IMG/VR virus record: IMGVR_UViG_3300029305_006221
Location: 64,001-128,000 of that record
DNA: 64,000 bases
From: a virus
Reading direction: 5' to 3' (one strand)
A model generated the notes under the pieces. The model ran no database searches, was not told the DNA's origin, and saw only the letters and a list, made by a program, of their open reading frames with translations. Below are positions 4,458 through 62,350 of the stretch, piece by piece. The position numbers were made by a program, and so were the translations under genes. Every line of letters starts with the position of its first letter. Position 1 is the first letter of the stretch.

Positions 4458-4528
4458 TTTTAAATCTCCTTTTTATTTTTATTATAACATTATTTTTTCT
4501 TAAAGTCAATCTAAAATACCACACTTTC

Positions 4529-4557: not shown

Positions 4558-4589
4558 TTATTTAAAGATAGATGAAAGGAGCCAATAAC

Positions 4590-9271: not shown

Positions 9272-9298
9272 ATTAGAAGAAAGAAGAGGTGCTTAAAC

Positions 9299-12314: not shown

Positions 12315-12338
12315 GTTTAATTAAGGAGGACATATAGC

Positions 12339-12869: not shown

Positions 12870-12886
12870 TAAGGGAGGGAATAATA

Positions 12887-13939: not shown

Positions 13940-13959
13940 TTAATAAACTGAACTTTAAC

Positions 13960-13995
13960 GAGGGAAGTGAAGGAAACTTCCTTCCCTCTTAATTT
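13960..13995 (+). terminator. rho-independent terminator after the capsid gene
   Basis: GAGGGAAG-tgaaggaaacttc-CTTCCCTC then TTAATTT. Confidence 0.6.
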
Positions 13996-14022
13996 CAAAA
14001 GGAGATAAAAGGAGATTATTAT

Positions 14023-14598
14023 ATGATAGCTAACACAGATAAAATTAGAGTTGAAAATAGGGCTAATGCAATTGTTGCATATGTAGTTCCAGAGTCTAAT
14101 ATAATTAGACGTTTTGTTCCAGGAGAAACTAAAGAGATTACTATGAATGAATTGCGCCAAGCTGTTCAAATACCTGGAATTTATCGTTTAATTGAAAGCA
14201 ATTTAATTATTCACAGTAAGGAAGCGGCTGATGAACTTCTTCCTGGAGTAGAGCCTGAGTATTTTTATAATGCAAAAGATGTAGATTATCTACTTGAGCG
14301 CGCAACCCTTGATCAATTAAGAGATGCTCTTGATTTTGCGCCTGAAGGCGTTGTTGAACTTATTAAGGAAAGAGCTGTAAAAACTAAACTTAATGACGTT
14401 CGTAAAAGAGAAATTATTCTTGAGCAAACTAATTTCGATGTAACAAAAGCAATAGAAATTCAACATCTAAGTGAAACAGAAATAAAAACAGAAACTAGAA
14501 CAAGACGTGCTGCGCCTTTGACAGAAGAGGCTCAAAATAACGAGCCTGAGATGCCGGTTAGACGCGCTGCCGCACCTAAATATACCGTTATAAAATAA
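14023..14598 (+). CDS. hypothetical head-associated protein, 191 aa
   Basis: Intact ORF with no TAG. Ends at TAA 14596-14598. Confidence 0.5.
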   Translation: MIANTDKIRVENRANAIVAYVVPESNIIRRFVPGETKEITMNELRQAVQIPGIYRLIESNLIIHSKEAADELLPGVEPEYFYNAKDVDYLLERATLDQLRDALDFAPEGVVELIKERAVKTKLNDVRKREIILEQTNFDVTKAIEIQHLSETEIKTETRTRRAAPLTEEAQNNEPEMPVRRAAAPKYTVIK

Positions 14599-16944: not shown

Positions 16945-17683
16945 TTTACTTTTACTCTCTGGAGCAGATATCCCTTTTATCGAAGGTACCGCAACAATTC
17001 ATTAGCCCACTATTTATGAAATTTCATTAATTGGAGAAGAAGCATTATTTTCAGGCTGTGAATTATTACGGTTTTCAAAAGATATATTATCAACTGAGGA
17101 CAAAACTAGATTATCTAATTATACAGATTTTAATATATTAATGTCAATAATGAATGATAACAGTGCCTCAGTTAAATCTAATGTATCTGATGCAAAACAA
17201 GTATTATAGTTAATTTTTCCGCAATATGAAGTAGTGATTAATCAAAAAGAAATTTTACTACTTGATGTAAATGATAAATTTACGCTATGTGGACAAATTA
17301 ATGATATTAATTTTCTTTAGTTTAAAGAAGTCATTTCAGAGATATTTTGTTTGAAATAGACTTCTTCTACACAAGATTATAATGTGTAGGGAGAATTAGC
17401 GAAAAAGATTGCAGAAAAGTTTAAACGCAGACAACAATAGCTTGCCGAGTTATCTCCAAAGTCTGATAAAAAAATCTCAATCTTTAGTAGATATATTTCT
17501 ATACTAACAGTTGGAGAGCATAAAGATATGAATTCTTTTATGAAGTACACTGTTTATCAACTTTTTGACGAGTTCTAGCGTTTTTAGCTTAAAATGGGTT
17601 ATGATATTTATTTTAAAGCGCGAATGGCTGGGGCAAAAGATATGAAAGAGCCTGAAGATTGGATGAAAGACATCCATGAATAA
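16934..17683 (+). CDS. hypothetical structural protein, 249 aa with about 8 TAG
   Basis: ATG 16934 overlaps the upstream stop. Frame 2 is open to TAA 17681-17683. Confidence 0.45.
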
Positions 17684-17732: not shown

Positions 17733-18635
17733 ATGAAGTTTGGTGTACGCGAAATATGCGATGTCGTATTTAAGGCTAAAGCAAAAGTCAAAATTGGTGG
17801 AATTGAGTTCCAACCTGGACAACCTGTTCTTTATATTGACTCTGCTAAGACATCTACAATTGAGGGCGCAGCTACTACAGTATATGCTCAGGGTGGCCGC
17901 GGAAATACTCGTTTAATTGCTTGGGAAGGCGAAAAAACTCTTACATTTACTGTTGAAGATGCACTTCTTTCTCCTATGGGATTTGCAATTCTTTCTGGAG
18001 CTGGTCTTTTAAAAGGAACAGATGCAGAGAAGGTAAATGTTCATACCACAACTATGGCTTATGCAGATGATGATGGTAAGATTGATCTTGCTGATGCTCT
18101 TGGCGCAGATAGCTTTAGTTCTGATCCAGATGCGAAGATTTATGTTCTTCCTGTTGCAGCAGATGGATCTTTAAATGGTAAACCTGTTCTTGGTGTTAAA
18201 GGAGAGGAAGCAGATGCTAAAACTGTTACTGCTACTGGCGTAAAGGGAGCTTGTTTTGTAGATTATTATATTGAGAAGACAAGCGATAAGGTTTCTGAGC
18301 TTCAAATAGATGCGGAAAACTTTGCTGGTTACTACTACGTAGAGGCTAGTACGCTCTTTAGACGTCAAGACAATGGTAAGGATATGCCTGCTGAAATTAC
18401 ATTCCCTAATGTTAAGATTCAGTCTAACTTTACATTCTCTATGGCTTCTACGGGAGATCCTTCAACATTTACATTCACAATGGATGCAATGCCTGGATAT
18501 ACCTATTTTGAACCTACTCGTAAAGTTCTTTGCGCAATTCAGATCGTTGAAGATACTTCTGATATCGAGGATATTAAGACAGTATTCCCTGTTAATAGTG
18601 AAGATAACTTTGCAGACGATAACTCAATAGTATAA
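17733..18635 (+). CDS. major tail protein (tail tube), 300 aa
   Basis: Intact ORF with no TAG. AAGGAGG RBS. Followed by a strong terminator and then by genes leading into the tape measure. Confidence 0.55.
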   Translation: MKFGVREICDVVFKAKAKVKIGGIEFQPGQPVLYIDSAKTSTIEGAATTVYAQGGRGNTRLIAWEGEKTLTFTVEDALLSPMGFAILSGAGLLKGTDAEKVNVHTTTMAYADDDGKIDLADALGADSFSSDPDAKIYVLPVAADGSLNGKPVLGVKGEEADAKTVTATGVKGACFVDYYIEKTSDKVSELQIDAENFAGYYYVEASTLFRRQDNGKDMPAEITFPNVKIQSNFTFSMASTGDPSTFTFTMDAMPGYTYFEPTRKVLCAIQIVEDTSDIEDIKTVFPVNSEDNFADDNSIV

Positions 18636-18701: not shown

Positions 18702-20381
18702 ATGAGTGCATTAAGTGATTACATTCATTTACATAGAGAAAACTATTTAGAGCATGGTACTTTTAGAAATACCGATAATAATAGTAATGATGGAAAAGAA
18801 GCTTTTTAGAGGTTTGCTAATCAAATTTAGAATCGTGCAACTCATTATTTAAATGATGAAACAAGATTGCGTTAGCTTGAAGAAACTTTTAATGAAGAAA
18901 GAAAAAGAAAAATAGAAGCTTTAAAAATTTTAGCTAAAACTCCTGCAGACTATACTAAGTTTATTGAAGCTGTTTTAAAAGCAGCAGAGCTAAAAAAATT
19001 TAATCCAAATGATATAGCAAAATGGCTCACAGTAAATGAAAACAATAATACTTTAAAATTAAATGAAATTTTTGAAAAAGCAGATACAACACAAAGAATT
19101 ACAATTCCTAATATTTCTAGTAAAATTAATTTTTCTTATATCGATACTCTTTTATCTCATATAAAGATTGGTCATCAAATGATAAAAATGCTACAAGATT
19201 AGAATACAAAAAATCTTTTAAGAGATAGATTAAATTTTTTAGCTGCTTCTTTATATCGTATAAAATAGCAGGCTTTAAAAGAAGGAAATAGTTTACGATC
19301 TTTTTATTCAATTAACGATAATAAAATTACTGGTTTATTAGGAGAAGGACAAGTTTTTTTAGACAAAGGTAAAGTAGCAATAAGCGCACCTATGAATAGA
19401 ATTATTAATAATGAAATTATTTCAATTTCTAAAACCGCAAGACTAAGTTCTGTTATGAGTAATATCTTGGGAGCAACAGAAGAAGTTCTGGGAACAATTG
19501 GCGCACCGCTTTTATAGGATATAGCAAATGAAACAATGGATGGGTTTTTAAACAATATAAAATATATATTGAATAATTAGAATATTACTAAAGGCTAGTC
19601 CACTTCATCTATGAACTTTAAAATAGATGATATTGTTTTTAATAAATACGAATTACAAAAAGATAAATATAAAAATTATGTTACAAAACTTGCTGATGGC
19701 ACTCTTACATTGGAGTTAAATTATGATACTAAAAACAAAGCTGACTTTTCTATAAGTGTAGATGGCAATAATATAGGGGTAAGTTCAAAAGCTATTGATT
19801 TAAGTAAAACAGGATACACTAATAAAAAAGGAGAGTATATTCCCGCATAGGTAACTTTACAAAGTGGAACTAATTTATTGGCTTACTTATTAAAAGCCCA
19901 AGAAATTATAGATAAAACTGGAACCCATTTTTTAAATGCTTATGCGACAGGATCCTTAACCGATGAAGCAGACAAGGCCTTAACTATCTTCTTGGTCTAT
20001 ACTGCATTAACAGGAGATATTCTAAAAAAAGAAGGCAATGCTGGATTACTATATATTTATGATACCAGTAATAAATTACCTGATGGTAGTAATAGGGTTC
20101 ATTTTTTTAGCATTGGTTCAATTATATAGTCATTATTAAAAAATGAAAATCCAGAAGATGTGGTATTATTTTCTCCGTCTTTGCAAAGTATATCTTAGGA
20201 ATTACAAAAAGCAAACGAAGAAGTAGATCCAAAAGACTGGGAGTTAGAAGAGAAGAGTAAGATTGGCGCAGCAATTTCTGCTCGTCATACAAAAGTCTTA
20301 GGAGAAGCTAGATTAACAATTTTAAGTATAGCTTTAACTAATGATCATATAAGAAGTTTAATTAATAATAAAATTACTTGA
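18702..20381 (+). CDS. hypothetical tail protein, 559 aa if all 11 in-frame TAG are read as sense
   Basis: AAGGAGG RBS, then ATG 18702. Frame 0 is free of TAA and TGA up to TGA 20379-20381. Joins ORF-track ORFs 19611 and 19878. Confidence 0.45.
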
Positions 20382-20406
20382 CTTCTTAAAAATTTTTTAT
20401 TATAAT
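20378..20406 (+). promoter_or_regulatory. sigma-70 consensus promoter (TTGACT-17-TATAAT)
   Basis: acTTGACTtcttaaaaattttttatTATAATata. -35 = 20378-20383, -10 = 20401-20406. Confidence 0.65.
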
Positions 20407-41794: not shown

Positions 41795-43693
41795 ATGGCA
41801 TTTGCTGATAATATTCTTAATGTAAGACTTCAACTTAAGTATGACTCTCTTGAAAATTGGGCAAGAGAAAATCCCCTTCTTAAAGCCGGTGAGGTTGCGA
41901 TTGCATATCTTCCTCCTAAGGGCAATGGAGAAGCTCCTGCTGCTACTTCTGAAGCAGTATTAATGAAGGTTGGTCCTGGTAACTTTAACAGTCTTCCTTT
42001 CACAAGCGCTCTTGCAGCTGATGTTTATGGATGGGCTAAGGAGAACGAACTTAAGTTCTCTAAAGCAGGCACAGGTAATGTTGTTTCTGGCATCGAATGG
42101 GACGCTACTCTTAATGGAAACAAGGGTGGTATTAAATTTACGACTGCTTCTGTTGCAACCTCTGAAGGATTAGAAGAAGTTCAAAATGATATCGCTGCAA
42201 TTGAAAAAGATATTTCTGATAATCGCGCAGCTTGGGCAAAGGATGATAATACAACTTATACTTTTGCTAAATCTGCAGATGGCAAGGGAATTACAATTAC
42301 TCCTTCTGAAGGTAATGGTTCTACAATTTCTTTTGCTTTCTTAACGCAAGCAGAAATTGAAGCTCTTAATTATCTTGTAAAAGCAGATATTACAACCGGT
42401 AGTGCTAATGGTACAATCGCTGTTGAAGGTGCTGATGTTGCAGTTAAGGGTCTCCAGGACGCTGCTTATACCACAGTATCTGCGCTTAATGCAACAGCTA
42501 AGGGATATGCTGATGCAGTTGAAGCTAAGATTCCTACCGAACTTGGCGTTATGTCTGTTGCTGAAGGTAATGATACAATCACTATTGGTGGTACAGCTGC
42601 TAATCCCACTATTGTGGTAACAGCGAATAAGTTTGATGCATACGGTGCAGCAGCGGCAGTTCAAACTGGTGTTGAAAATGGAACAGTTAAAGCTAAAGTT
42701 GCAGAAACGGCAGATAAAGTTGCCAACTCTTTAACTGTAGGTAGTAAAACTTATAATGGTTCTGAAGCAATTTCAATTACTGCAGCAGACCTTGGCTTAT
42801 CCAATGCTCTTCACTTTGTTGGCACATCTTATCCTTCAAACCCTGTCGCAGGTGATGTAGTTCTTGATGGTAATAAGGAATATGTTTATGATGGCTCTAA
42901 GTGGATTGAACTTGGAGATGAAAGTAGTCATGCTTTGAATACCATCACTATCACTGGAACAGATGGTCTTGAAGGCGGAGGTAATCTTACTGAAAATAGA
43001 ACTTTAAAAATTGCGGATAGCGGTGTAACTACTGTTAAGATTGCAAATGATGCAGTAACCGCTGATAAACTCGCCGATGCTATTAATACAGATATCGCCA
43101 AAGGTGTAACTGCTCATGGCTGGGGTAACCATGCCAATGCAGGTTATGCTAAGACTGCTGATCTTGGTGATCTTGCAACTCTTGATACAATTACTTCTGA
43201 AAAAGTAACTGATTTTGAAAATGCCGTCAACAACACTAACATAGGCGGAACTAATGAGGGTGTAACTGTTGCTAGCGGCCTTAACAATGCTCTTGACAGA
43301 GTTACTACTCTTGAAAGCAACAAGGTTGATAAGACAACTACTGTAAACGGTAAGGCACTTTCTGAGAGCATAAATATTTATGCAGAAAATATTCATGTTG
43401 AGTCTGATTCAGTTATGGATAGAGGCGTTACAGTTTATGACTCTCTTGAGGCAATTGCTAAAACAACGATTAATGGTGAAACAATTCTTGAAAACTTTAG
43501 TGCTGGTGATTATGCTACATCTAGACAGTTTGTTCTTAATGGTGAAACTCTTAAGATGTCTGGAACAGATACAACAACTCTTAATGCGGCAATTACTGCT
43601 CGTCAGACAGAGGCTCAGGTTAATGCTCTTATCGAGGCAGCACTTGGCGCAATTACAACAATTAACTGTGGTTCTTCTACAGAGGTTATATAA
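41795..43693 (+). CDS. tail fibre protein with a HylP-type N-terminal domain, 632 aa with no TAG
   Basis: Intact ORF. N-terminus MAFADNILNVRLQLKYDSLENWARENPLLKAGEVAIAY. Confidence 0.6.
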   Translation: MAFADNILNVRLQLKYDSLENWARENPLLKAGEVAIAYLPPKGNGEAPAATSEAVLMKVGPGNFNSLPFTSALAADVYGWAKENELKFSKAGTGNVVSGIEWDATLNGNKGGIKFTTASVATSEGLEEVQNDIAAIEKDISDNRAAWAKDDNTTYTFAKSADGKGITITPSEGNGSTISFAFLTQAEIEALNYLVKADITTGSANGTIAVEGADVAVKGLQDAAYTTVSALNATAKGYADAVEAKIPTELGVMSVAEGNDTITIGGTAANPTIVVTANKFDAYGAAAAVQTGVENGTVKAKVAETADKVANSLTVGSKTYNGSEAISITAADLGLSNALHFVGTSYPSNPVAGDVVLDGNKEYVYDGSKWIELGDESSHALNTITITGTDGLEGGGNLTENRTLKIADSGVTTVKIANDAVTADKLADAINTDIAKGVTAHGWGNHANAGYAKTADLGDLATLDTITSEKVTDFENAVNNTNIGGTNEGVTVASGLNNALDRVTTLESNKVDKTTTVNGKALSESINIYAENIHVESDSVMDRGVTVYDSLEAIAKTTINGETILENFSAGDYATSRQFVLNGETLKMSGTDTTTLNAAITARQTEAQVNALIEAALGAITTINCGSSTEVI

Positions 43694-43706
43694 TTAAATA
43701 CACATA

Positions 43707-43736
43707 AGGGTGGGTAATTCTACCCACCCTCTTTTA
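43707..43736 (+). terminator. rho-independent terminator
   Basis: AGGGTGGGTA-attc-TACCCACCCT then CTTTT. Confidence 0.7.
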
Positions 43737-43800
43737 AAAGCCACTTGAGTTTGAAAGTGATAACTCAAGAATTTAATACTTGAAAAGGAGATAGTATATT

Positions 43801-44589
43801 ATGGCTACAACTGAAGCATTAAAATTTCGTATTGTGCATAAGCACGATACCGAAGAGAATTGGCTTAAAGCCACAAACTTTATCCCTAAGCAGGGAGAAA
43901 TAATTATTTATGATATTGACGCGAATTACAATTATGAGCGTTTTAAAATAGGTGATGGCACTAGTAATGTAAATGCATTGCCTTTTGCTAATAATGGTTC
44001 TAGTGAAACTACAGAAATATATGGAGACGCTCCAAATCTTCCTCTTTTAGATGAGCAAACTTATGACCAAGCTTGTATTGTTCCATTAAAAATTAGGGTT
44101 AAAAACAATACTATTAATTATAGCGGTACTGGAAATCTTCCTTATTACCAGTATTTTGATAGAACTTTAGAAGTACCCGCATACACTATGGAAGGAACCT
44201 TTTACTCAGAGACCTTTACCGTTAGTAATTATTCTGGAGGAATGGAAGATACGACTACTTATACTGTTAGTATAACTTTTAATAGAGGAAATTGGACGAT
44301 TAATAATGATTCTAATGGTATAATTACCTTTTTAATGGATGAAGAATTAACAACGGTAGGCGCAGGTAGGGCGCTAAGAGAAACATCCGATAGATTTAGT
44401 GTTACGACAGCATGGGATGGATCAAATGATGTTCCAGCTATTAAGGTAGGTAATACAGTTCTTACCGAAACAAAACTTAGTCAATTAATTGCGTACATTG
44501 ATGGTTTAGCAAGCGGTGATCCTGCAGTAGTTGAACCTATTGCGCAGAACTATCTTGACACGACAGTAGCAGAGGAGGCGACTTGGTAA
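43801..44589 (+). CDS. tail fibre or receptor-binding protein with a HylP-type N-terminal domain, 262 aa with no TAG
   Basis: Intact ORF. N-terminus MATTEALKFRIVHKHDTEENWLKATNFIPKQGEIIIYDID. Confidence 0.55.
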   Translation: MATTEALKFRIVHKHDTEENWLKATNFIPKQGEIIIYDIDANYNYERFKIGDGTSNVNALPFANNGSSETTEIYGDAPNLPLLDEQTYDQACIVPLKIRVKNNTINYSGTGNLPYYQYFDRTLEVPAYTMEGTFYSETFTVSNYSGGMEDTTTYTVSITFNRGNWTINNDSNGIITFLMDEELTTVGAGRALRETSDRFSVTTAWDGSNDVPAIKVGNTVLTETKLSQLIAYIDGLASGDPAVVEPIAQNYLDTTVAEEATW

Positions 44590-45689
44590 TGGGATTTAAT
44601 GAAAAAATGACTACATTAGCAGATGAAGTGAGAACGCTAAGTGGCGCTACTGAGGAAAAGAGTCTTGATGATTTAATATCTGATACTACTGCGGCTAATA
44701 GTGAGGTTGATGCGCAGACCGAGTTAATTGAACAGATTATGACTGCGCTTGATGGTAAGGCTGGCGGCTCAGGAGGAACAGTTCTTCCTACTCTTGATAA
44801 TCCTGCAAGTGCTACAGACATTCTTAGTGGAAAAGAAGCTATTGATGGTGAAGGTAATAAGATTACTGGTTCAATTGCTACTAAAACATCAAGTGATTTA
44901 ACTGCAAGCGGTTCTACGGTTACGGTTCCCGCAGGATATTATGCAAGTAACGCAAGTAAGTCTGTAGCTACTGTTACTCAAGCAACTCCTACAGTGTCGG
45001 TTAGCGCCAGTGGTTTAATTACAGCAAGTGCCACACAGAGCGCGGGATATGTAGCTTCAGGAACTAAGAGTGGAACTAAACAATTGACCACTAAAACAGC
45101 GACCACTTATACTCCTACTACTTCGAATCAAACAATATCAAGTGGAATTTATTTAACTGGCACTCAGACTATTAAAGGCGATGCAAATCTTAAAGCTGAA
45201 AATATTGCTTCTGGAGTTAGCATTTTTGGAGTAGCTGGAACTCATAGCGGAAGTGAAAATCTTGATACTGAATTAACTGAACAAGAAAGTTTAATTTCAG
45301 AGTTAAGCACTATCTTAGATAGTAAAGCAAGCGGAGGCTCTGGTGGAGGGAGCATAGAGACTTGCACTGTAACTATAAGCAGCAATTCATCATTTAATGG
45401 TATTTGGATTATATTTTATAATTCTTTAGAAAATAATTCCATTATAGGAAAAAAAAGTGACTTCCTTCTTAATTCTACATCTACAATAACTGTTAATGCG
45501 CTACAAGGCTCTGTAATTACCATAGTTGCTTTCGACATAGGGGTTTTTAACGACTATGGTATGAGTAATTGTAGTGTTTCCAATGGAGGCAATTTGTTAC
45601 ATGTGATGCAAGATTCTGTAAATATTGTAAATGTCGGTCTTGTAATCCAACTACCAAATGAAAACGATTGTACTATAACCTGTAGTTAA
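44583..45689 (+). CDS. receptor-binding-protein paralogue A, 368 aa with no TAG. Contains GGSGG linkers
   Basis: Intact ORF. The module ATQATPTVSVSASGLITASATQSAGYVASGTKSGTKQL...TIKGDANL is paralogous to the 46096..47151 gene. Confidence 0.5.
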   Translation: MVMGFNEKMTTLADEVRTLSGATEEKSLDDLISDTTAANSEVDAQTELIEQIMTALDGKAGGSGGTVLPTLDNPASATDILSGKEAIDGEGNKITGSIATKTSSDLTASGSTVTVPAGYYASNASKSVATVTQATPTVSVSASGLITASATQSAGYVASGTKSGTKQLTTKTATTYTPTTSNQTISSGIYLTGTQTIKGDANLKAENIASGVSIFGVAGTHSGSENLDTELTEQESLISELSTILDSKASGGSGGGSIETCTVTISSNSSFNGIWIIFYNSLENNSIIGKKSDFLLNSTSTITVNALQGSVITIVAFDIGVFNDYGMSNCSVSNGGNLLHVMQDSVNIVNVGLVIQLPNENDCTITCS

Positions 45690-45707
45690 TAAGGAGGTAA
45701 ATAAATA

Positions 45708-46076
45708 ATGTCAAATAAAACAAGATTACAAACAAATAACACCAACCTCCAAGCACTTATAGATAAGGCAAACGCACTTCCTGATGCTGGCGGAGGTTCT
45801 GGCGGAGGAGGAGACTTGGAAACTTGTACTCTTACATTATCCAGTATGGGCGTACCCACGGGCGACGAAATAGTTTATTATATAGATGACACTTTAACGC
45901 TTCAACAATCTAGTTTTCCCGCCTTTAGACAGAGTAAATCTGTAATCGTTATGAAAAATAGTATAATTTTTGTTGAATATGCGTCTGAGATCTCTGGAAG
46001 CATCGCTTCAATTGGTACTGGTACAAGTCATCAAGGATTTTTTATTTCGGGTGATGCAACTTTATCGAAAGGATAA
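45708..46076 (+). CDS. receptor-binding-protein paralogue B (short), 122 aa with no TAG
   Basis: N-terminus MSNKTRLQTNNTNLQALIDKANALPDAGGGSGGGG resembles the N-terminus of 46096..47151. Confidence 0.5.
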   Translation: MSNKTRLQTNNTNLQALIDKANALPDAGGGSGGGGDLETCTLTLSSMGVPTGDEIVYYIDDTLTLQQSSFPAFRQSKSVIVMKNSIIFVEYASEISGSIASIGTGTSHQGFFISGDATLSKG

Positions 46077-46095
46077 TGTAAAGGGGGATTAACAA

Positions 46096-47151
46096 ATGTC
46101 AAATTATAATACGCAATTACAAGCAAACAATTCCTCTTTGGAGGAAATTATAACACAGCTTAATGAGTTGCCCGATGTGGGAGGTACCGACCCTATTCTT
46201 CAAGATAAAACAGTAACTCCTTCAACGAGTCAGCAAACGGTAACTGCAGATAGCGGATATGATGGATTAGATACGGTAACTGTTAATGCAATGCCTACGG
46301 CTACACAGGCAACACCGAGTATTACTGTTAATTCAAGTGGACTGATTACTGCAACTGCAACTCAGACTGCTGGTTATGTGGCGGCAGGTACTAAATCTGC
46401 AACTAAACAGTTAGCATTTCAAGCTGCGCAAACCATTATCCCTGGTACAACTAATCAGACAATTGCATCTGGACAGTATTTAACTGGGGTGCAAACTATT
46501 AAAGGCGATGCTAATTTAGTAGCGAGCAATATCGTAAGTGGCAAGAGTATTTTTGGAGTGGTTGGTACTGCTAATAGTGGAGGTGGAAGTAGTGGCGGAG
46601 ATACAAGTGCAGAAGATGGACTAGTAACTAGAACTTTGACGACTTATACAAATGATAGAGTAACAACTATTGGAAATTATGCGTTTTATTCTTGCTCAAG
46701 CCTTACAAGCGTAAGTTTTCCACAATGTACAACTATTGGAGACTATGCGTTTCGATATTGCTCAAGCCTTACAACTGTAAATTTTCCAGCGGTTACAACT
46801 ATTGGTGCTTCTGCCTTTGTAGGTTGTTTAAAACTTGCGGGAGTGAGCTTTCCAGCAGTTACAGCTATTAACCTCGCTGCATTCCAAAACTGTTCAAACC
46901 TTACGACTGTAAGTTTTCCAAAAATTACAAATATTAGTTCTTACGCATTCCTACGTTGTTCAAAACTTGCTTCTATTTATCTTGCTGCATCTACAGTATG
47001 TTTTTTAGAAGGCTCAGACGCTTTTTCACAAACTAGTATCTGGTCAAACAAAGGCTCAATCTTCGTTCCGGCCTCCTTACTTGCTTCTTATAAAGCTGCA
47101 ACTAACTGGGTTTTCTTTTCAAATAGAATTTTTTCATATAACTTCACATAA
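46096..47151 (+). CDS. receptor-binding-protein paralogue C with a C-terminal BspA-type leucine-rich repeat domain, 351 aa with no TAG
   Basis: Intact ORF. Five or more tandem LRR units of the type TIG(N/D)YAF..CS.LT.V.FP. Shared module with 44583..45689. Confidence 0.55.
   Translation: MSNYNTQLQANNSSLEEIITQLNELPDVGGTDPILQDKTVTPSTSQQTVTADSGYDGLDTVTVNAMPTATQATPSITVNSSGLITATATQTAGYVAAGTKSATKQLAFQAAQTIIPGTTNQTIASGQYLTGVQTIKGDANLVASNIVSGKSIFGVVGTANSGGGSSGGDTSAEDGLVTRTLTTYTNDRVTTIGNYAFYSCSSLTSVSFPQCTTIGDYAFRYCSSLTTVNFPAVTTIGASAFVGCLKLAGVSFPAVTAINLAAFQNCSNLTTVSFPKITNISSYAFLRCSKLASIYLAASTVCFLEGSDAFSQTSIWSNKGSIFVPASLLASYKAATNWVFFSNRIFSYNFT
46680..46960 (+). repeat. tandem ~69-nt coding repeats encoding the BspA-like LRR units
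   Basis: Reiterated ...tgctcaagccttacaa(g/c)(c/t)gtaa(g/a)ttttcca.. units. Confidence 0.6.
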
Positions 47152-47183
47152 TATTTAAAAGAGATAAAAGGAGATAAAAGGAA

Positions 47184-48164
47184 ATGAAATTACAAATTTT
47201 AGTACCTCAGTATAAAGAAACGGAAGATATTATTAAACCATTACTTGATAGTATTGAGGTTCAACAAAATGTAAACCTAAAAGAAGATGTTGGTGTCATT
47301 ATAGTAAATGATGGCACTGATGTCCATCTATCAGAAGACTTCTTTAAGAGATATTCTTTCCCAATTGAGTATCATCTCAATGAACATAAAGGTGTTTCTG
47401 CAACTCGTAATGCTTGTCTTGATAAAGCAACTGCAGATTATGTAATGTTCTGTGATGCAGATGATATGTTCTACAATGCTTGCGGCTTATACATCATCTT
47501 CCGTGAAATAGAGAATGGTGGCTTTGATAGTTTAGTATCTGCATTCATTGAAGAGTCTCATATTCCAGATACTAAAGAACCGCTTTATATCAATCACGAT
47601 ATGGATTCTACTTTTGTGCATGGAAAAGTGCATCGTAGACAATACCTTATTGATAATAATATTCGTTGGAATGATAAGTTGACGATTCACGAGGATAGTT
47701 ATTTTAATTGTCTATGTCAGAGACTTGCAAAAGAGTTGAAGTATTCTCAGACTTCATTCTATTTGTGGCGTTGGCGCGATGCTTCGGTTTGCCGCCATGA
47801 TCCAAAGTATATTTTAAAAACCTATAACAATATGCTTGATAGTAATGATGCTCTTGTAACTCAATTCTTAAATCGCAAGAGAAAAGAGGATGCTCAATTC
47901 TATGTAGTAGGCATGATTTATGATGCATATTTCACAATGAATAAAGACGAGTGGCTAAATCAAGAGAATAAAAATTATCGTTATGCAACGGAGAGACGCT
48001 TTAAGGAGTATTGGCTAAAGTATAAAAAGTTGCATGATGAAATTCCTCAAGATATAAAAGCTCAGATTATTATGGGAATTAAGAATCGGATGTATGCTGA
48101 AGGTATGGTACTTGAAACGCTTACTTTTAACGAGTGGATTAAGCAAGTTGAAGCAATGGTGTAA
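47184..48164 (+). CDS. family-2 (GT-A fold) glycosyltransferase, 326 aa with no TAG
   Basis: Motifs VGVIIVNDGTD, CDADD (DxD) and ATRNACL. AAAGGAG RBS. Confidence 0.7.
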   Translation: MKLQILVPQYKETEDIIKPLLDSIEVQQNVNLKEDVGVIIVNDGTDVHLSEDFFKRYSFPIEYHLNEHKGVSATRNACLDKATADYVMFCDADDMFYNACGLYIIFREIENGGFDSLVSAFIEESHIPDTKEPLYINHDMDSTFVHGKVHRRQYLIDNNIRWNDKLTIHEDSYFNCLCQRLAKELKYSQTSFYLWRWRDASVCRHDPKYILKTYNNMLDSNDALVTQFLNRKRKEDAQFYVVGMIYDAYFTMNKDEWLNQENKNYRYATERRFKEYWLKYKKLHDEIPQDIKAQIIMGIKNRMYAEGMVLETLTFNEWIKQVEAMV

Positions 48165-48205
48165 AAACAAGATTTAACAGAACCCCAATTTTTTACAATG
48201 GAGGG

Positions 48206-48520
48206 ATGATAATGACTACAACTATTATATTATTGATAATAACGTCCATTTTTAACATAATTGATTATTGCCAAACAGCATACGCCATAGGACTTTTTGG
48301 ACTTGGCGTTGAGCTCAATCCAATAGGGCGCCTTATGTTTGCAGCCGATTGTGGATGGCTAAAATTAATTATTATGCCAATTTTATTGTTAGCTCTTGGC
48401 CTTATTATTAAAGCTGATAAGAGGCTGTCTTGGGAGGCTTGGCTTGTGACAATATTGTATCTTATAGTTATTATAAATAATTTTTATATGTTAATACGAG
48501 CGGGAGTATTTTTCTTCTAA
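48206..48520 (+). CDS. small polytopic membrane protein, 104 aa with 3-4 predicted TM helices. GtrA/flippase-like or holin-like
   Basis: Hydrophobic segments IILLIITSIFNII, IIMPILLLALGLII and LVTILYLIVIINNFYML. Immediately downstream of the GT2 gene. Confidence 0.45.
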   Translation: MIMTTTIILLIITSIFNIIDYCQTAYAIGLFGLGVELNPIGRLMFAADCGWLKLIIMPILLLALGLIIKADKRLSWEAWLVTILYLIVIINNFYMLIRAGVFFF

Positions 48521-54200: not shown

Positions 54201-54973
54201 ATGAAGGGATCATTCTTCTTTTCCTATTCACTGGATGGGGAAGAAACGGCTGGGGCAATGGAGGTTCCGAAGGAGGAAGTGGATACGTTCTTAATCCCTA
54301 CTTCTATGGATTTGGCTCTAGTTCGGGCGCTTGTGCAACTAAAGACGACGTTCGCGCGGCTGTTGATCAGCAAACCCTTATTTCTAAACTTGATAACCAA
54401 ACCTACGGTCTCGCTGATAGCACTTATTCATTAAGTAATGCTATCACATCTGGATTCCATGGAGTAGATAATGCAATCTGTACTCTTGGATACCAAAATC
54501 AGGCAGGCTTTACCGCACTTGGTAATCAACTTGCACAATGCTGCTGCGACACTCGTGCCGCTATCGCAGACGTAAAAACTCAGGGTGTAATTAACACTAA
54601 TGCCCTATCTAGCCAGTTAGCGGCTTGCTGCTGTGACATTGAGAAGGCTAATATGGAAAACCGTTTTGCTGCTCAAACCTATAATTGCAACACGCTTCAG
54701 GCTATTGACAAACTTGGTGATAGAATCATTGACTTCATGACGCAAGATAAGATCGCTTCTCTTACTGCGGAGAATCAATCTCTTAAGTTTGCGGCATCTC
54801 AAGCAAATCAGAATGCATTTATCACTGCTAACCAAGAGGCTCAAACAGCAGAACTTATTCGTAGACTTGGCAGAGATTGCCCAATTCCTGCGTATGTAGT
54901 TCCAAATCCTAATTGCTGCTATACCCCTCAGGTTCAGATCGCATCTTCTAACTGCGGCTGCGGTTGCTTCTAA
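54201..54973 (+). CDS. Cys-rich, Gly-rich secreted-like protein (CCCD repeats, C-terminal NCGCGCF), about 258 aa. The start codon and the body are in different frames
   Basis: ATG 54201 with an AGGAT RBS is in frame 0. The clearly coding frame is frame 2, stop-free from 54200 to TAA 54971-54973, and includes ORF-track ORF 54653..54973. That frame has no ATG, GTG or TTG before 54653. The two frames meet around the T4 run at 54218-54221. Confidence 0.4.
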
Positions 54974-54998
54974 TCTAAGAATGGAGGCTTGAAAAAGA

Positions 54999-55418
54999 AT
55001 GGAATTAATTGCTAATGCTTTACAAACAGTTGGTGCTGGCGAAAATGTTCAGTTTACAGATGAAGTTGTTAGTGGATGTAACTCGATTCTCCATCGAGCA
55101 GGAAGTGGCTTAATTACCTTGCGCGGCATTACCAATCAGTGTCGCGCAAGATTCAAGGTTTTCTTTAGCGGAAATATTGCTATTCCTGCAGATGGAACCG
55201 TAGAAGCCATTTCAATTGCCATCTCGGTAAATGGAGAGGCTATTGCTTCAACAACTATGATTCAAACTCCTGCTGCGGTAGAGGAATTTGCAAATGTGGC
55301 TAGCGCAGCTTATATTGATGTTCCAGCAGGTTGCTGCATTTCTGTTGCAGCAAGAAACACAAGTACACAAGATATCGATGTACAAAACGCAAATTTAATC
55401 ATAGAAAGGGTGGCATAA
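54999..55418 (+). CDS. BclA C-terminal-domain-like (C1q/TNF-fold) protein, 139 aa
   Basis: Intact ORF. Ends in NANLIIERVA (compare BclA ending ...SIIIEKVA). Internal ISIAISVNGEAIA resembles BclA LTIQVNGVPV. Confidence 0.5.
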   Translation: MELIANALQTVGAGENVQFTDEVVSGCNSILHRAGSGLITLRGITNQCRARFKVFFSGNIAIPADGTVEAISIAISVNGEAIASTTMIQTPAAVEEFANVASAAYIDVPAGCCISVAARNTSTQDIDVQNANLIIERVA

Positions 55419-56156: not shown

Positions 56157-56480
56157 ATGTTTACTATTAATGGAGAATATTGGTAGATAGTTTTAGTTTA
56201 TCCATACGACGTTGCACTTTTAATGCCAAATGGTAGATATGCTTTAGGAGCGTGTAATGATACTACTAAAACTATCTATATCAGTAATGCGCTTCATAGT
56301 GAGATGTTTGAGCAGGTATTGTGTCATGAATTAGTACATGCCTCAATGTTTGCGTATAATGTCCTGTTAGAGCACGATGAAGAGGAGTTAATTGCAGAAA
56401 TTATTTCTGTGTTTGGAGAGGAGATTATAGACATTACTGATATGATGTTTGAAAGAATAAAAAGAGGAAGATATAGATAA
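56157..56480 (+). CDS. ImmA/IrrE-family-like zinc metallopeptidase (HEXXH) small protein, 107 aa with 1 TAG
   Basis: ATG 56157. An in-frame TAG at 56184 joins it to ORF-track ORF 56223..56480. Motif TIYISNALHSEMFEQVLCHELVHA. Confidence 0.45.
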
Positions 56481-56495
56481 TATATCTTCCTCTTT
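56461..56495. terminator. bidirectional palindromic terminator between two convergent genes
   Basis: AAAGAGGAAGATATA-gataa-TATATCTTCCTCTTT, with the TAA of the ImmA-like gene in its loop. Confidence 0.6.
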
Positions 56496-56498
56496 TGT

Positions 56499-57008
56499 TT
56501 ACCATTCCAAAGCTGCGGTATAATCTTTTTCTTTTTTAGGATTAAGATAGGCATGGCCTATGCATACGGCATCTGCTATATCATCATTGGTTAAAGATAG
56601 ATTATATGTTTTATTTGCGAAATCAATATCTTTTTGCTTTTTCTATTCTCGTTTAGAGCTGCGTCCATCTTCTATGCCACATACTGAGCGCCAAGAGCTA
56701 GGATAAATCATTTCAATCTATACCTCTGGATGTTTATCGTGCATTTCAATATGAATTAATGCCTATAAATACATTAATGCACGAAATGTATTTGTGTTTT
56801 TACTATGATCTGGAATAACTTCTTCCATTACAATCTAATTAATTCCTAGCTAATCTACGACAGCTAGAATATTGTCCACCATTTTATGTATTCTTTTATA
56901 TAGATCTGTAGATGAAGAGGTAATACAAGCCTATCCAATTAATTCTTTATCTTTAAAAATTGCAATTCCTGTTGCTTTAGTTGAAGCATCTAATGCCAAT
57001 AAGTACAT
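56499..57008 (-). CDS. RuvC-like Holliday-junction resolvase, 169 aa with 6 TAG read as sense. Absent from the ORF track
   Basis: GGAGGTG RBS, then ATG at 57008. Reads MYLLALDASTKATGIAIFKDKELIG(TAG)ACITSS... The LALDASTKATGIAIF segment resembles the RuvC catalytic N-terminal motif. No TAA or TGA until 56501-56499. Confidence 0.65.
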
Positions 57009-57050
57009 AAATGCACCTCCATTCTGGATATATTATATTTTAAATTTTTT

Positions 57051-57087
57051 AAAAAATCAAAAAGAGCGAGATTTAATCTCGCTCTTT
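57051..57087 (-). terminator. rho-independent palindromic terminator after dut
   Basis: AAAGAGCGAGAT-tta-ATCTCGCTCTTT then TTGATTTTTT on the minus strand. Confidence 0.7.
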
Positions 57088-57090: not shown

Positions 57091-57576
57091 TTATTTATTT
57101 CCACTTGACCCAAAGCCACCATCTGCTCGAGCAGTAGTTCCAATTGATTTTACTTCGTTAAATTCAACACGTAAGAAAGGTTGAACAATTAGTTGCGCAA
57201 TACGTTCACCATGTTCTATTACTTGCATTTCATCAGAATCATTTTTAAGAGCCACTATGACGGCGCCTCTATAGTCTGCATCAATGATGCCAACAGTGTT
57301 TGCTAATACAAGACCTCTTTTTGTTGCCATTCCGCTTCGTGGATAGATTGCGCCAAAGGTGCCCCGAGGCAGCGCAATAGCAATGCCTGTAGAAATTTTT
57401 TTATAGGTGTGAGGTGGAATTACAATCTTATCTAATCCTTCTAGGTCAGCATGAAGATCCCAACCAGCTGCCTGTTCACTTCCTCTCACCGGCGCCTGTG
57501 CAGTAGATGTAAGCTTTACAAAATCGATTTCATTAGCGGGCTTCGGAGTAACTATATATCCATTTTTTATATTCAT
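57091..57576 (-). CDS. dut: dUTP diphosphatase (dUTPase), 161 aa
   Basis: Motifs AAGWDLHA, RSGMATKRGLVLANTVGIIDADYRG and FGSSG. Confidence 0.85.
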   Translation of the reverse strand: MNIKNGYIVTPKPANEIDFVKLTSTAQAPVRGSEQAAGWDLHADLEGLDKIVIPPHTYKKISTGIAIALPRGTFGAIYPRSGMATKRGLVLANTVGIIDADYRGAVIVALKNDSDEMQVIEHGERIAQLIVQPFLRVEFNEVKSIGTTARADGGFGSSGNK

Positions 57577-58797: not shown

Positions 58798-59279
58798 TAG
58801 CTAATCCTTTCTGCATATTGATTTGGACTAGCAAGTTTTACTCCAAGTATATCATCAAAGTGAGATTCCATATCTGGAATATAGCGTCCAAATTTTACAA
58901 TAATATTTGAAAAATGTTTTAATTGATTTAATTGATCTTCAATCTCATCATCATAATATCCTGTGTAAATAACAACATCATCTTCTATTAAATAACATTC
59001 TCTAAAAACAAAGAGAAAGTCATATAAGTCTTCAAAGGTATCAAAAGGCTCCAATCCTTGAAATACTATTGCATGTGTAAACGGAGTCTTTTGATATAGC
59101 TCAATAATAGAGTCTATTGAATAATCAAGAGTTGGCATATTTGCCAATGTACTATTTTGACACACTGGCATGCCGCATTCTCGATCACATTTAAAACCTT
59201 TGCAATAAGGAGTTTCTATTGTTAAAGAAGGAATTTTATAATTAACGAAATCTTCTGTTATAATTCCTTTGACTTTCAT
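58797..59279 (-). CDS. nrdG: anaerobic ribonucleotide reductase activating protein (small radical-SAM NrdG type), 160 aa
   Basis: Cys cluster YCKGFKCDRECGMPVC. Overlaps the nrdD stop. Typical nrdD-nrdG arrangement. Confidence 0.65.
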   Translation of the reverse strand: MKVKGIITEDFVNYKIPSLTIETPYCKGFKCDRECGMPVCQNSTLANMPTLDYSIDSIIELYQKTPFTHAIVFQGLEPFDTFEDLYDFLFVFRECYLIEDDVVIYTGYYDDEIEDQLNQLKHFSNIIVKFGRYIPDMESHFDDILGVKLASPNQYAERIS

Positions 59280-62200
59280 TTTTTATTTACTGGCTCCCAT
59301 TTTCTCATTTTATATTCATTTGTGCGCTCTTTTGACCAAGTTTTAATCGGTGTATAAAAGCCTACAATTCTTGTATATTCGGTTTCAACTGGACGACCAC
59401 AAACGGGGCATTCGTGACCATAAAACGCATGATTATTATCGCAAGCTTGGATTTTAGTATTAAAAGCAAAATATGTTACTCCAGCATCAGAAATATAGTT
59501 AACCATTTCCCAAGCTTTATCAAAATTGTCAAATGGAGCATCAATATTGGCGTGAAGAATTGAACCTCCATTGCAGTAGCCATCAAACTCCGCGGCAATT
59601 CTAACACGTTCCGCAAGAGTAGTTTGAATACCAAGAGGAATAAATTGATTGCCATATAAAGGAAGATCAAAGATATCAGAATCTGGATAGAAGAATTTAT
59701 CTTTACGCATTAGTTTGGCGGCGGCTGACTCTCCAGGGATCTGCTCTGTGTTAATATGATAGTCGGCACTCATATCTTCAATAAACTGATCAGCAACCTC
59801 ACGCATCGTTTGGAAAATTCTCTGACCAAGCGAAGACGCTTCTTCTGTATAGTATACATTTCCAAAATCATCTGTGCGAGTATAGCCAAAGCGCTTCATT
59901 GTTTCATAAACGCCAATAAAGCCAATAGTGTTATAGAGATGTTCAAAATCTACAAGCCCCATAGAGAAATTGGGGAGAAGTCCTTTTTCAACATTACGAC
60001 GAATAATATTTCTAACACAATGAAGAGCCTGAAGATTAAGTAAAGTGCGCTTTCTTAATTCCATTAGATATTCAAATTCACTATTCGTATCAAGCGCCAG
60101 GCGCGCAAGATTAATAGTAGATACTTTTACAGAACCAACTTTAAGCGCAGTACCTCCGATACTATTAAAATAACCCAGATCCTTAATATCGCTCTTTAAA
60201 CGGCAACAGTTGGAAAGTGAAGTCACAGAGTCATCAATAAACAAGTTACTATCTGACCAACGCATGTTATGCTTTACGGCCCAGCGCGCAAATTCCTCAT
60301 CTTGGAACTCTCCATCTTGTTTTAGCAAAGAGATTGAAAGCACTGGGAAAGTAAACATATTATGAGATCTAATTTCTGCAACTTCTTCCATGTACCATTT
60401 TTGAAACTCAATAATATCCTCTTCATAGTCAATCATAAAGCTGCCATCGGGAAATTCGCTACCGCCAAATAATGCTTCATAATAGGGGCGATCAAATACA
60501 CTTGTGTTAGTAAAAGCGCTTTGCGAACCATCACGAACATAAGGCTGATTTACGGCGTAGACAAAACGCTGAAAGTTCTGGCGCGCATATTTTTCAGCAT
60601 TGCCACTTGAAGCTAAGCCAAGGTAATCAGACTCAACGTCTTTATGCCAAAAATACCACATATAAGGAATAAGGTTAGGCAAACCGACGGCGCCTGATGA
60701 ACGATTAGATGCATAACTAATATATTCTTTAACGAAGTCTACAAAAGTTGTTAAATGTTTTGCAGGTTCGGGATTAAATGGAGCTCCTATAAAATAAAGT
60801 CCTTTTTCGGCTAAATCTTTTAGATCATAAGCAAAACAGTTATGAGATAGAATATTATTACAAATAAAATGACCTGTTTCTGTTGTTAAGTCATATACCT
60901 CAGGGCATTCATCAATATACTCTGAGTTATCAATAATTGAAACCCATCCATAGTTGTATTCATATTGTTTATTTTTAAAATTGCCTTTTCGAGTTAAAGG
61001 CGTATATTTTTCTTGAATTTTAACGCTTCCAATGTTTAAAAAATATTCCTCATTTGTAAGAGTAAAGCCGATACCGAACATTGGTAGCTTTTGTTCAAAG
61101 CTTCCAATTCTATTATATCTAAATGGTGTTCTATCTCCTACAAAGATTCCTTTTGAGTGCAAATACATGCTTAACTGGCGACAAAGAACTTCTGAAGCAA
61201 TACGGATATGACAATGTCTATTCTTATATCCATCAATAGTACCATCTCCATCAATCATTCCTGCAATAACCCCATCCATAAAATCTGATGGTAATTGCAT
61301 AAAATAAGAAGGCAAACATTTATTAACAGAAGTTTGTTTATTGAATAAAGAAATTAACCATTTTTGGAATTCACTGTTGTGCAGATAAAATTTTCTATCT
61401 CCACTTTCTGCAAAAGGAATTTCATGAGTATTTAAAATTTGTCTCATTTTCTCTGCTTGAATAGAATTTAATTTTTGTGCTATAACAAATTGTCTATTAT
61501 TTATAACATTGCCTTCAGATAAGGCCATGCCAGTGACCCATCCTAAATCTTTTAATTGATTTTGTTTAAAAGGCAATTCGCAATTGAATGAGCAAGAGGG
61601 TTGAATGGTAAAGACACGATATTCATCATTTACATCTTTTGCAGGAATGTCGCCACAATCTGTAATAATAGGATGGTCTTCAGTTACAATTTGCGATAAA
61701 CCATTTGCTAACTTAATAAAACGCATAGACTTATTATTTGTGTGTTTAACTGCGCGAGTAACCTTAGTCCAACATTTTTCTCCAGTTTCTTCATTAATAT
61801 CAAGTACCTCAATATTTTTTGGAAATAATGCTTTTTGCTCAATAGATACATCATAACGCTCTTCTGCTTCGGTATCCATTGCAAGAATATTGTCATATAA
61901 CTCTTTTAAAGCAAAAGTATATTCACGGTGTATTCTATCTCTTACTGTTACAAGCTCTTCACCTTTATAACAGTAGTGTTTAAAAGTGCTAGTATCAGCA
62001 TCATGCATGTAAAGCTGTCCTACCCATTCAGATTTTAACCATTCATTGGCTGTTTTAAATCCAAACTCTTTTTGCATTTCATAATGAATTTTATTATATG
62101 CCAATAATTTTCTATGTGGTTTTGGCATTTCATTAAGAAGTGTTACTATATCTTTTTTACTGACGTTACTATTGCCATCAATACTCGCATCCGCAACTAC

Positions 62201-62350
62201 TTTGGTATCAATAAAATTATCAATAAAATCAACATAGCTCAATTGATTATCGTCAAAGCCATTGAGTCTAGCAATATCTGTTCCATATTCAGCCTAAAGC
62301 TTATTATAGGCTGTGGTAAAATTCTTTTTTAGTCTAACATTAATGTCCAT
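59276..62350 (-). CDS. nrdD: anaerobic ribonucleoside-triphosphate reductase with an intein, 1024 aa from ATG 62350. One in-frame TAG at codon 19. The ORF track starts at TTG 62242
   Basis: Extein motifs LYMHDADTSTFKHY / CFAYDLKDL, and a C-terminal Zn ribbon and glycyl-radical region (CPVCG, RIVGFYTP). Upstream of TTG 62242 the frame stays open through TAG 62296-62294 to ATG 62350. That ATG overlaps the nrdH stop (ATGGACATTAATG). Encoded N-terminus MDINVRLKKNFTTAYNKL(TAG)AEYGTDIARLNGFDDNQ. Confidence 0.85.
60839..61972 (-). mobile_element. intein (378 aa) with a LAGLIDADG homing-endonuclease domain, inserted in nrdD
   Basis: N-terminal Cys (CYKGEELVTV), block B TEDHPIIT, LAGLIDADG-like motifs LGWVTGMALSEGNV and GVIAGMIDGDGTIDG, C-terminal ILSHN followed by +1 Cys. 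The extein junction HY|CFAYDL matches the conserved NrdD N-terminal region. Confidence 0.7.

Follow-up and report, generated by a model that had tools for sequence, protein, structure and literature searches.

The 64,000-nucleotide (nt) stretch analysed here, referred to throughout as the window, corresponds to positions 64,001 to 128,000 of the IMG/VR virus record IMGVR_UViG_3300029305_006221, and its minus strand carries, at 57008..56499, a frame of 169 codons containing six in-frame TAG codons (26, 53, 58, 82, 97 and 122) and no internal TAA or TGA. The initial annotation had described this frame as an overlooked gene for a RuvC-like resolvase, provided with a strong ribosome-binding site (RBS) and lying between an ImmA-like gene and dut, and this description agreed with what we found: the six TAG codons were counted and no overlooked TAA or TGA came to light, a GGAGG element occupies 57020-57016, 7 nt from the ATG, and the coordinates of both neighbours fit. 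These are a convergent gene encoding a protein of 107 amino acids (aa) with a HExxH motif (56157..56480, plus strand), which scored 21.1 bits against Peptidase_M78 (ImmA/IrrE), just under the cutoff of 22, and dut (57091..57576, minus strand), identified by a PHROG dUTPase match of 6.6e-56. The N-terminus of the encoded protein is MYLLALDASTKATGIAIF. The features of the locus are as follows.

56499..57008, minus strand: coding sequence of the RuvC-like Holliday-junction resolvase, 169 codons plus TAA, with TAG read as glutamine (Gln)
56931..56933, minus strand: TAG codon 26, the first block to translation; this column varies in relatives (S, C, Q, Y)
56850..56852, minus strand: TAG codon 53, CAA at the same site in the related loci L001 and L008
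56835..56837, minus strand: TAG codon 58, CAA at the same site in L001
56763..56765, minus strand: TAG codon 82, at the family-invariant Gln of an 'LQA' motif
56718..56720, minus strand: TAG codon 97, in frame as judged by the frame and the alignment of relatives
56643..56645, minus strand: TAG codon 122, in frame by the same two indications
57016..57020, minus strand: RBS GGAGG, 7 nt before the ATG, inside the conserved block CAGAATGGAGGTGCAT and invariant in six lineages
57032..57060, minus strand: sigma-70-type promoter, TTGATT, 17-nt spacer, TATAAT; the hexamers are kept and the spacer drifts
57061..57087, minus strand: intrinsic terminator hairpin 3' of dut, separating the RuvC-like gene from the upstream operon, kept in five relatives
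56460..56496, no strand assigned: terminator hairpin in the gap where the RuvC-like and HExxH genes converge, placed to act for both

No open reading frame (ORF) of at least 30 aa is present in this frame under the standard code and therefore a TAG-blind ORF track misses the gene, its fragments included, as had been claimed. A search for the protein returned 328 homologues, one of them 100% identical, 169 aa long and present without a name in public collections. Since databases hold this identical protein and hundreds of full-length relatives, gene callers must have used TAG = Q earlier. When annotated phages were searched at the DNA level, no close relative was found.

With TAG translated as Gln, the protein matched three PHROG families of Holliday-junction resolvases (phrog_159, 2e-18; phrog_827, 6.6e-17; phrog_1770, 2.8e-11). 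Hidden Markov models from Pfam gave a divided answer: PF07066, the lactococcal phage RuvC-like family, was passed narrowly (23.4 bits with TAG = Q and 20.1 with TAG = X, for a cutoff of 22.1), and PF02075 RuvC, the family towards which the initial annotation had pointed, stayed at 19.3 bits, under its cutoff of 22.2. Searching the Protein Data Bank (PDB) with the single protein sequence produced RuvC matches at noise level only, and a sequence profile search reached E. coli RuvC with E = 0.015. A search by fold was more informative. The AlphaFold model, based on 61 homologues (predicted local distance difference test score 91.7, predicted template modelling score 0.87), shows strands (E) and helices (H) in the order E-E-E-H-E-H-E-H-H-H, and its 14 best PDB matches were all RuvC proteins, with template modelling (TM) scores of 0.72-0.82 and E values down to 1e-9; the RuvC of phage bIL67 (4ktw), 23% identical, was among them.

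The catalytic residues are known in two of these enzymes, D7/E66/D138/D141 in E. coli RuvC and D8/E71/D145/D149 in bIL67 RuvC, and S10 and T11 (bIL67 numbering) are invariant among phage RuvCs (PMC3864405). Residues D7, S9, T10, E62, E63, D142, D143 and D146 of the window protein are invariant across the 61 sequences. D7 and E66 of E. coli RuvC correspond to D7 and E62 in the sequence profile alignment, and the C-terminal catalytic pair (D142/D143 and D146) was placed from motif and helix position rather than from a residue-level superposition. The protein thus carries equivalents of the four catalytic carboxylates together with the Ser-Thr signature. Both the N-terminal catalytic motif seen in the initial annotation and the acidic residues that it had named as a check are in place, and the 57008..56499 frame is, as judged from sequence and model, that of a RuvC-family Holliday-junction resolvase with predicted activity. 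The enzyme would be a dimeric, Mg-dependent endonuclease acting on Holliday junctions and other branched DNA.

The meaning of TAG was read from the DNA of relatives, which avoids the circularity of proteins already translated with TAG = Q. The comparison set consisted of 76 unique copies of the RuvC-like gene from phage contigs of ~100-150 kb, 25 of them without any in-frame stop. In nine related loci the RuvC-like gene contained 4-5 TAGs and no other stops, and TAG and CAA exchanged at three alignment columns (54, 59 and 73). Codon 82 was TAG in 9 of the 10 unique copies of the clade to which the window belongs (clade A) and CAA or CAG, both Gln, in all 25 standard-code relatives. A similar site was found in the gene for the ribonucleotide reductase NrdD, two genes being thus available for the comparison:

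62294..62296, minus strand: TAG codon 19 of NrdD (coding sequence 59276..62350), within the conserved N-terminus, CAA in L001, L004, L006 and L008

In the other flanking genes Gln was the commonest partner of TAG (42 of 221 sites). Codon 82, NrdD codon 19 and these partners taken together, the reading TAG = Gln is well supported by sequence comparison for the window phage. The window is plainly recoded throughout, with frames of 3167 and 1649 codons that hold 69 and 38 TAGs, respectively, and no other stops, and we regard the phage as a TAG-to-Gln recoded phage of ~130 kb from gut Bacillota, of the Agate/phAss-like group.

NrdD itself showed some peculiarities. A standard-code caller would begin it 36 codons late, at a TTG at 62242. 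The product of 59276-62350 (minus strand) has 1024 aa, compared with 644-646 aa in relatives with an uninterrupted gene, and the extra segment (approximately residues 136-505) has Cys as its first residue, includes a DGDG motif and closes with SHN, after which comes a Cys. It scored 31.8 bits against Pfam Intein_splicing, under the cutoff of 35.8, and is probably, from these sequence features, an intein that includes a homing-endonuclease domain. The NrdD gene of L008 and L009 is instead split by a TnsA-like ORF.

The regulatory signals around the RuvC-like gene recur in relatives. The promoter hexamers are conserved in the window, L001, L002, L010, L012 and L014, and in the six lineages that have the upstream spacer the same order is found, namely hairpin, TTGAC/tT, 17 nt, TATAAT and CAGAATGGAGGTGCAT before the ATG, with a drifting spacer sequence; 9 of 9 relatives examined have a similar hairpin after the stop codon of the RuvC-like gene. 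Other lineages lack this promoter and have a homing endonuclease or a small gene directly against the start codon. The recurrent succession of terminator, promoter, RBS, gene and terminator therefore identifies the gene as an insulated single-gene transcription unit with a predicted host-type promoter. Promoters of the class TTGAY-17-TATAAT are overrepresented in the window (10 sites vs 1.2 expected, a number reached in 0 of 100 shuffles).

Near-consensus promoters (TTGAY, 17-19 nt, TATAAT) were located at 546-574(-), 1386-1414(-), 1907-1935(-), 2528-2556(+), 4481-4509(-), 4529-4557(+), 9243-9271(+), 17118-17147(-), 20378-20406(+) and 57032-57060(-); the two between g12 and the sigma-factor-like g13 diverge, and in view of the minus-strand sites at 1386 and 1907 the ORFs picked on the plus strand in 992-2476 may be wrong. 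The gene g13 (4572-5759, plus strand), which heads the late module, has a textbook TTGACA-17-TATAAT promoter and 2 TAGs; its product matched a PHROG 'sigma factor' family (1.4e-38), carries a C-terminal Cys-rich tail resembling HNH/endonuclease VII, and gave no Pfam match. An 18-mer, AAATTTAAAATATAATAT, occurs exactly twice in the window, at 9256-9273 (+) and 57030-57047 (-), across the -10 regions of the portal and RuvC-like promoters. We considered it as a shared late promoter motif and rejected it: relaxed matches numbered 5 vs 1.8 expected and 3 of 100 shuffles reached 5, the motif was absent from 88 related loci, and for an AT-only sequence this is not significant, so that it represents chance or a weak lead.

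TAG codons are distributed very unevenly among the genes of the window. The RuvC-like gene uses 6 TAG vs 1 CAA for Gln, the second-highest TAG density in the window, while the neighbouring minus-strand module uses 2 TAG vs 76 CAA/CAG (Fisher p = 4e-7 for the contrast). In this nucleotide module dut, NrdG, grx, gmk, a polIII-alpha fragment and small ORFs are TAG-free and NrdD has one TAG; the minus strand had been called otherwise TAG-free, which codon 19 of NrdD contradicts. The accompanying claim that TAG use is not strand-specific is upheld by the minus-strand TAGs of the RuvC-like gene and NrdD and by large TAG-free blocks on the plus strand. TAG-bearing genes include those for terminase, portal and tail and the giant genes, and 38% of Gln codons are TAG among the TAG-bearing genes of the late module. 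The TAG-free blocks of that module (plus strand; 10908-14598, 17733-18635, 41795-48520 and 54653-55418) also hold fibre-like g37-g41, a family-2 glycosyltransferase (g42, 5.5e-14), g43, g51 and g52.

The bias towards the RuvC-like gene extends to relatives. Within a 20 kb context its TAG share ranked first among 17-22 ORFs in 6 of 6 clade A genomes and, when pooled, 27 of 35 Gln codons were TAG (77%), vs 190 of 1323 (14%) in other ORFs. Two other TAG clades gave shares of 0.41 vs 0.17 for the neighbours (23 of 23 loci) and 0.50 vs 0.25 (8 of 8), figures that give direction and not exact significance, the gene calls in these loci being made by a longest-ORF heuristic. Homing-endonuclease-like inserts, the only other TAG-rich genes of the module in relatives, are likewise TAG-bearing, with 5-7 TAGs in GIY-YIG genes, 2 in NUMOD3 and 3 and 5 in two unnamed inserts, and they lie beside polIII-alpha, gmk, grx, NrdG and dut genes without TAG; one GIY-YIG gene (L001:747-1589) has no TAG. 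The inserts were located as follows.

L001:3199-3993, L002:1886-2614, L008:9262-10008, L008:745-1692, L004:588-1349 and L004:9265-9999: homing-endonuclease-like inserts, 2-7 TAGs each

A coding-length ratio, considered as a way of finding recoded genomes with a clean RuvC-like gene, was dropped because spurious ORFs grow with each read-through in loci of 6 kb. That the RuvC-like gene is consistently first in TAG share is a modest new observation inside a published framework.

Under the standard code, translation would stop at codon 26 and yield a 25-aa peptide without E62, D142/D143 and D146. With six TAGs in the gene and only such a peptide otherwise, active enzyme can be produced only while amber suppression operates, presumably through a phage suppressor tRNA encoded outside the window. 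Phage RuvCs are promiscuous, nick replication forks and cause chromosome breaks when expressed, and their proposed role is the clearance of branches prior to packaging (PMC3864405). A temporal model of recoding, together with a preferentially recoded homing endonuclease within an early gene of Agate phages, has been put forward by Borges et al. (10.1101/2021.08.26.457843). We suggest that the TAG load may have been selected to hold a promiscuous nuclease off, or low, during phage DNA replication, and that the nuclease would then be released together with the TAG-bearing terminase, portal and tail proteins, when branches need to be removed for packaging. The homing-endonuclease genes that relatives carry as insertions in this module show the same TAG bias. 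Our preferred explanation, held with moderate confidence, is therefore that of a functional RuvC-family resolvase in a TAG-to-Gln phage, whose TAG load would gate the nuclease to suppression. If this were true, tying a nuclease to stop-codon suppression would be a simple way of protecting replicating DNA, with release for packaging only, and the resolvase and the homing endonucleases, as outliers in a nearly TAG-free module, would offer a concrete single-gene case for recoding as a timer.

Several observations weigh against gating of this kind. NrdD, a nucleotide-metabolism gene, requires TAG read-through in 3 of the 6 lineages, and g18, g20, g21, g27 and g37-g43 of the late module are TAG-free, although g18 is scaffold-like, g20 is a capsid candidate by position and the homologues of g27 are annotated as virion structural protein; a TAG-free gene is therefore not necessarily early. 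These late blocks might possibly reflect TAG avoidance in abundant proteins, or recently exchanged cassettes. The RuvC-like homologue of phage phAss-1 (OQ749652), at the same position, is TAG-free and constitutes a counter-example to universal gating of the resolvase. In the clade that reads TGA as tryptophan (Trp), the RuvC-like gene is not enriched in the recoded codon (0.57 vs 0.51) and some copies contain no TGA (L020, L021); furthermore, the loci compared are akin and their classes required at least one in-frame stop in the RuvC-like gene, so that p-values overstate independence. Codon 82 is conserved as TAG no more than synonymous codons are at other invariant sites: among invariant residues with two codons the major codon was shared by 79% of copies on average, and 9 of 29 columns reached at least 90%. 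We thus make no claim of site-specific selection for TAG at this codon. Promoters do not help either, since TTGAY-17-TATAAT precedes early-looking genes, the sigma-like gene, portal, g29 and the RuvC-like gene alike; promoter type is therefore uninformative on timing, and as a timing marker it was rejected.

Decoding is a further point on this side. Suppressors were sought with ARAGORN, run on the window and on over 80 loci, with tRNA scans by Rfam and with a custom pattern for stem-loops. In the part of each genome that was covered, no CUA anticodon turned up, whether in the window, in the 10 kb past its left edge or in the arrays of three clade relatives (~10 kb each, with 20, 17 and 12 tRNAs plus several detected by Rfam only). 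Borges et al. (10.1101/2021.08.26.457843) identified suppressors in no more than 35-40% of phages of this kind.

These balances bear on what had been proposed for the locus. That recoding is temporal is favoured by the presence of TAG in terminase, portal and tail genes vs its absence from dut, NrdG, gmk and grx, and disfavoured by the NrdD TAG, the TAG-free virion genes and phAss-1. That a resolvase is a late function agrees with the action of the enzyme on DNA branches ahead of packaging (PMC3864405); genes of this type are, however, usually found in DNA-metabolism modules, as here. The stronger statement, that the RuvC-like gene confirms TAG usage by expression class, goes further than evidence of this type can carry it.

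The main rival to temporal gating, possible but in our judgement unlikely, is that dosage or relaxed codon selection, and not timing, sets the TAG content. TAG, being slow or leaky, would be avoided in abundant proteins and tolerated, or have a throttling effect, in low-copy enzymes, so that the RuvC-like gene and the homing endonucleases would drift to, or be held at, a high TAG share with no early/late switch. Dosage would accommodate the TAG-free late genes g18, g20 and g27, which are likely the most abundant of the module, as well as the TAG tolerated by NrdD and the resemblance of the RuvC-like host-type promoter to those of early-looking genes; the TAG positions of the RuvC-like gene also shift between lineages, with only Q82 shared and its codon conservation unexceptional. 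It accounts less well for a gene that is first, and not just high, in 6 of 6 clade genomes and above its neighbours in 31 of 31 loci from two other TAG clades with two different amino-acid meanings, or for the lack of TAGs in dut, NrdG, gmk and grx, which are presumably low-copy too. Besides, six consecutive read-throughs would cut yield steeply, which resembles on/off dependence over fine tuning.

A different function for the protein seems very unlikely, although phage RuvC cuts forks and branches and host-DNA breakdown has been proposed as its second role (PMC3864405): a RuvC-fold nuclease whose main job was, for example, degradation of the host chromosome at forks to obtain nucleotides would be at home beside dut, NrdD/NrdG, gmk and grx in a module for nucleotide supply, but host degradation would be expected early, a poor fit with a heavy TAG load if suppression is late, and the resolution and degradation roles are compatible, not mutually exclusive. 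Ancestry, for which we see very little likelihood indeed, would have a RuvC-like cassette moving between TAG-recoded phages, its TAG richness reflecting its origin. The self-contained, insulated unit with its own promoter and terminators, the GIY-YIG or other inserts immediately upstream in L004 and L008, and a dut/RuvC-like slot that differs between genomes are what a mobile cassette would leave; however, the place beside dut and the convergent HExxH gene is conserved among copies that are 60-86% identical, and the gene has diverged together with its flanking signals (terminator, promoter and RBS). In addition, the family occupies comparable positions whether a genome is standard-code, TGA or TAG, and carries the recoded codon proper to each, which argues for in-place adaptation to each code. 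To a decaying pseudogene, with the TAGs as true stops, we attach practically no credence, and it was ruled out. It would explain six stops under the standard code, but TAG alone occurs and TAA or TGA never, every catalytic residue is retained, TAG stands at codon 82, a Gln invariant in standard-code relatives, and the 10 clade copies share 73 invariant amino-acid columns while their codons differ at 34-52% of identical-residue columns; the whole late module, moreover, uses TAG likewise, including the 3167-codon frame with its 69 TAGs.

The RuvC-like family proved informative beyond the window, as its copies fall into five classes: standard-code, TGA, the TAG clade of the window, a third TAG clade, and a further TAG clade (clade B). 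In the TGA-to-Trp clade, columns with an invariant Trp had TGA in 16 of 20 and in 11 of 20 RuvC-like copies, and in the third TAG clade TAG paired with Gln, as in the clade of the window (loci of these two clades: L016, L019, L022-L037, L044-L050, L069 and L081; L115 and L138-L166). Clade B, from phages of ~100-140 kb, comprises L040, a subset of L059-L088, and L089-L114 (e.g. L064:3536-5140, L097 and L099); IMGVR_UViG_3300021431_000004 and IMGVR_UViG_3300032038_000025 are among its contigs. Its TAGs fall elsewhere. The column of the invariant catalytic Glu62 had TAG in 9 of 21 copies and Glu in the remaining 12, as well as in each of the 25 standard-code copies; TAG was also present at Glu63 and at the Glu of DDEADA, and CAA or CAG specified the invariant Gln82. 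Outside the RuvC-like gene, the partner of conserved TAG sites in clade B was Glu 53 times and Gln 0 times, and the same procedure applied to the third TAG clade as an internal control gave Gln 46 and Glu 2. In the GH25 lysin of L064, TAG is located at the catalytic D-x-E glutamate, aligning with E in LytC 2ww5 and with Q in the companion structure 2wwc, where the Q is presumably a standard inactivating substitution. From these comparisons clade B appears to read TAG as glutamate, not glutamine.

Only TAG-to-Gln and TGA-to-Trp have been described in phages whose code differs from that of the host (Borges et al., 10.1101/2021.08.26.457843), and our literature search found UAR-to-Glu in eukaryotes only and no phage report of TAG-Glu; sequences up to 10 kb from the clade B genes yielded no suppressor tRNA. 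If the glutamate reading is true, the generalisation that phages use only TAG-Gln and TGA-Trp fails and clade B proteins are mistranslated in databases. Genomes with TGA-Trp, with TAG-Gln and with the standard code share the RuvC-like family, and several reassignments therefore arose among related phages, of which the resolvase family would mark at least three (TAG-Gln, TAG-Glu and TGA-Trp). That gating of DNA-cutting enzymes, RuvC-like and homing endonucleases alike, was selected and evolved repeatedly, the resolvase bearing the heaviest load of the recoded codon in three separate TAG clades, one of which would use TAG-Glu, is a tentative proposal that we hold to be somewhat doubtful.

Two further observations concern tRNAs and the left flank. 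In the tRNA array of one clade relative (L174:15868-16018) we found a 151-nt tRNA with an insertion of ~80 nt in the anticodon loop, which has its own T-arm-like GTTAGTTCGAATCTAAC and CCA end and looks like a nested tRNA; two more atypical tRNA-like genes lie nearby (L174:14146-14245 and 13764-13854), and ARAGORN missed these tRNAs or could not type them. L169, a contig of JGI 3300024269, reaches ~10 kb beyond window position 160, and this left flank contains ~20 small same-strand genes, with a homologue of a PemK-family toxin among them, as well as a tRNA-Thr(AGU), and resembles an early region.

Among known resolvases, bacterial RuvC is strictly junction-specific and works with RuvAB, whereas the phage enzymes are promiscuous (PMC3864405). 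The bacterial proteins (E. coli 1HJR, T. thermophilus 4LD0, D. radiodurans 7XHJ and P. aeruginosa 6LW3) are the best fold matches of the window protein, with TM up to 0.82, and share an acidic pair in the last helix, but their identity to it is only 10-17% and PF02075 stays under its cutoff. T4 endonuclease VII (gp49) and T7 endonuclease I (gp3), the expression of which is governed by transcription and not by codon reassignment, have folds unrelated to that of the window protein. They are its functional analogues in that they clear branched DNA before packaging (PMC3864405). The RuvC of phage bIL67 (67RuvC; PDB 4KTW; PF07066/DUF3882) is, like the window protein, a small single-domain phage RuvC of 160-170 aa with the same fold (Foldseek E 1.9e-8, TM 0.72-0.76, 23% identity) and a D-x-S-T start motif, its carboxylates D8/E71/D145/D149 having D7/E62/D142/D146 as counterparts. 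Identity is nevertheless low and PF07066 barely over its cutoff, the window enzyme is known from sequence and model and, unlike the gene of bIL67, which uses the standard code, that of the window contains six TAG sense codons; it also has a conserved promoter and terminators of its own.

With respect to recoding, the phages of Borges et al. (10.1101/2021.08.26.457843) resemble that of the window in size (~127-135 kb), in having standard-code, TGA and TAG relatives, in the concentration of recoded stops in structural genes and their rarity in the replication module and, for the Agate phages, in a DNA-cutting enzyme embedded in the early module and preferentially recoded. They differ in that the gene-family test was made on TGA-recoded Agate and TAG-recoded crAss-like phages, not on the clade of the window, that the word 'resolvase' is absent from the text and that the TGA clade here shows no RuvC-like enrichment; our literature search found no paper connecting a resolvase with recoding. 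phAss-1, deposited as 'Caudoviricetes code 15 clade', is similarly a TAG-to-Gln phage from the human gut, of 136 kb, with structural genes 45-49% identical to g20 and g27 of the window and a RuvC-like homologue (WIC39629.1, 57681-58190) downstream of nrdD/nrdG. This homologue, however, has 0 TAG and 8 CAA/CAG, lacks the S-T motif and is still named 'hypothetical protein'; the ORF just upstream of it is annotated as a 92-aa ThyX fragment. For annotation the consequence is that standard-code calling deletes a functional (predicted) enzyme from a phage genome. The gene belongs to known kinds, on the one hand the phage RuvC family and on the other the code-15 recoded genes of Agate/phAss-like gut phages.

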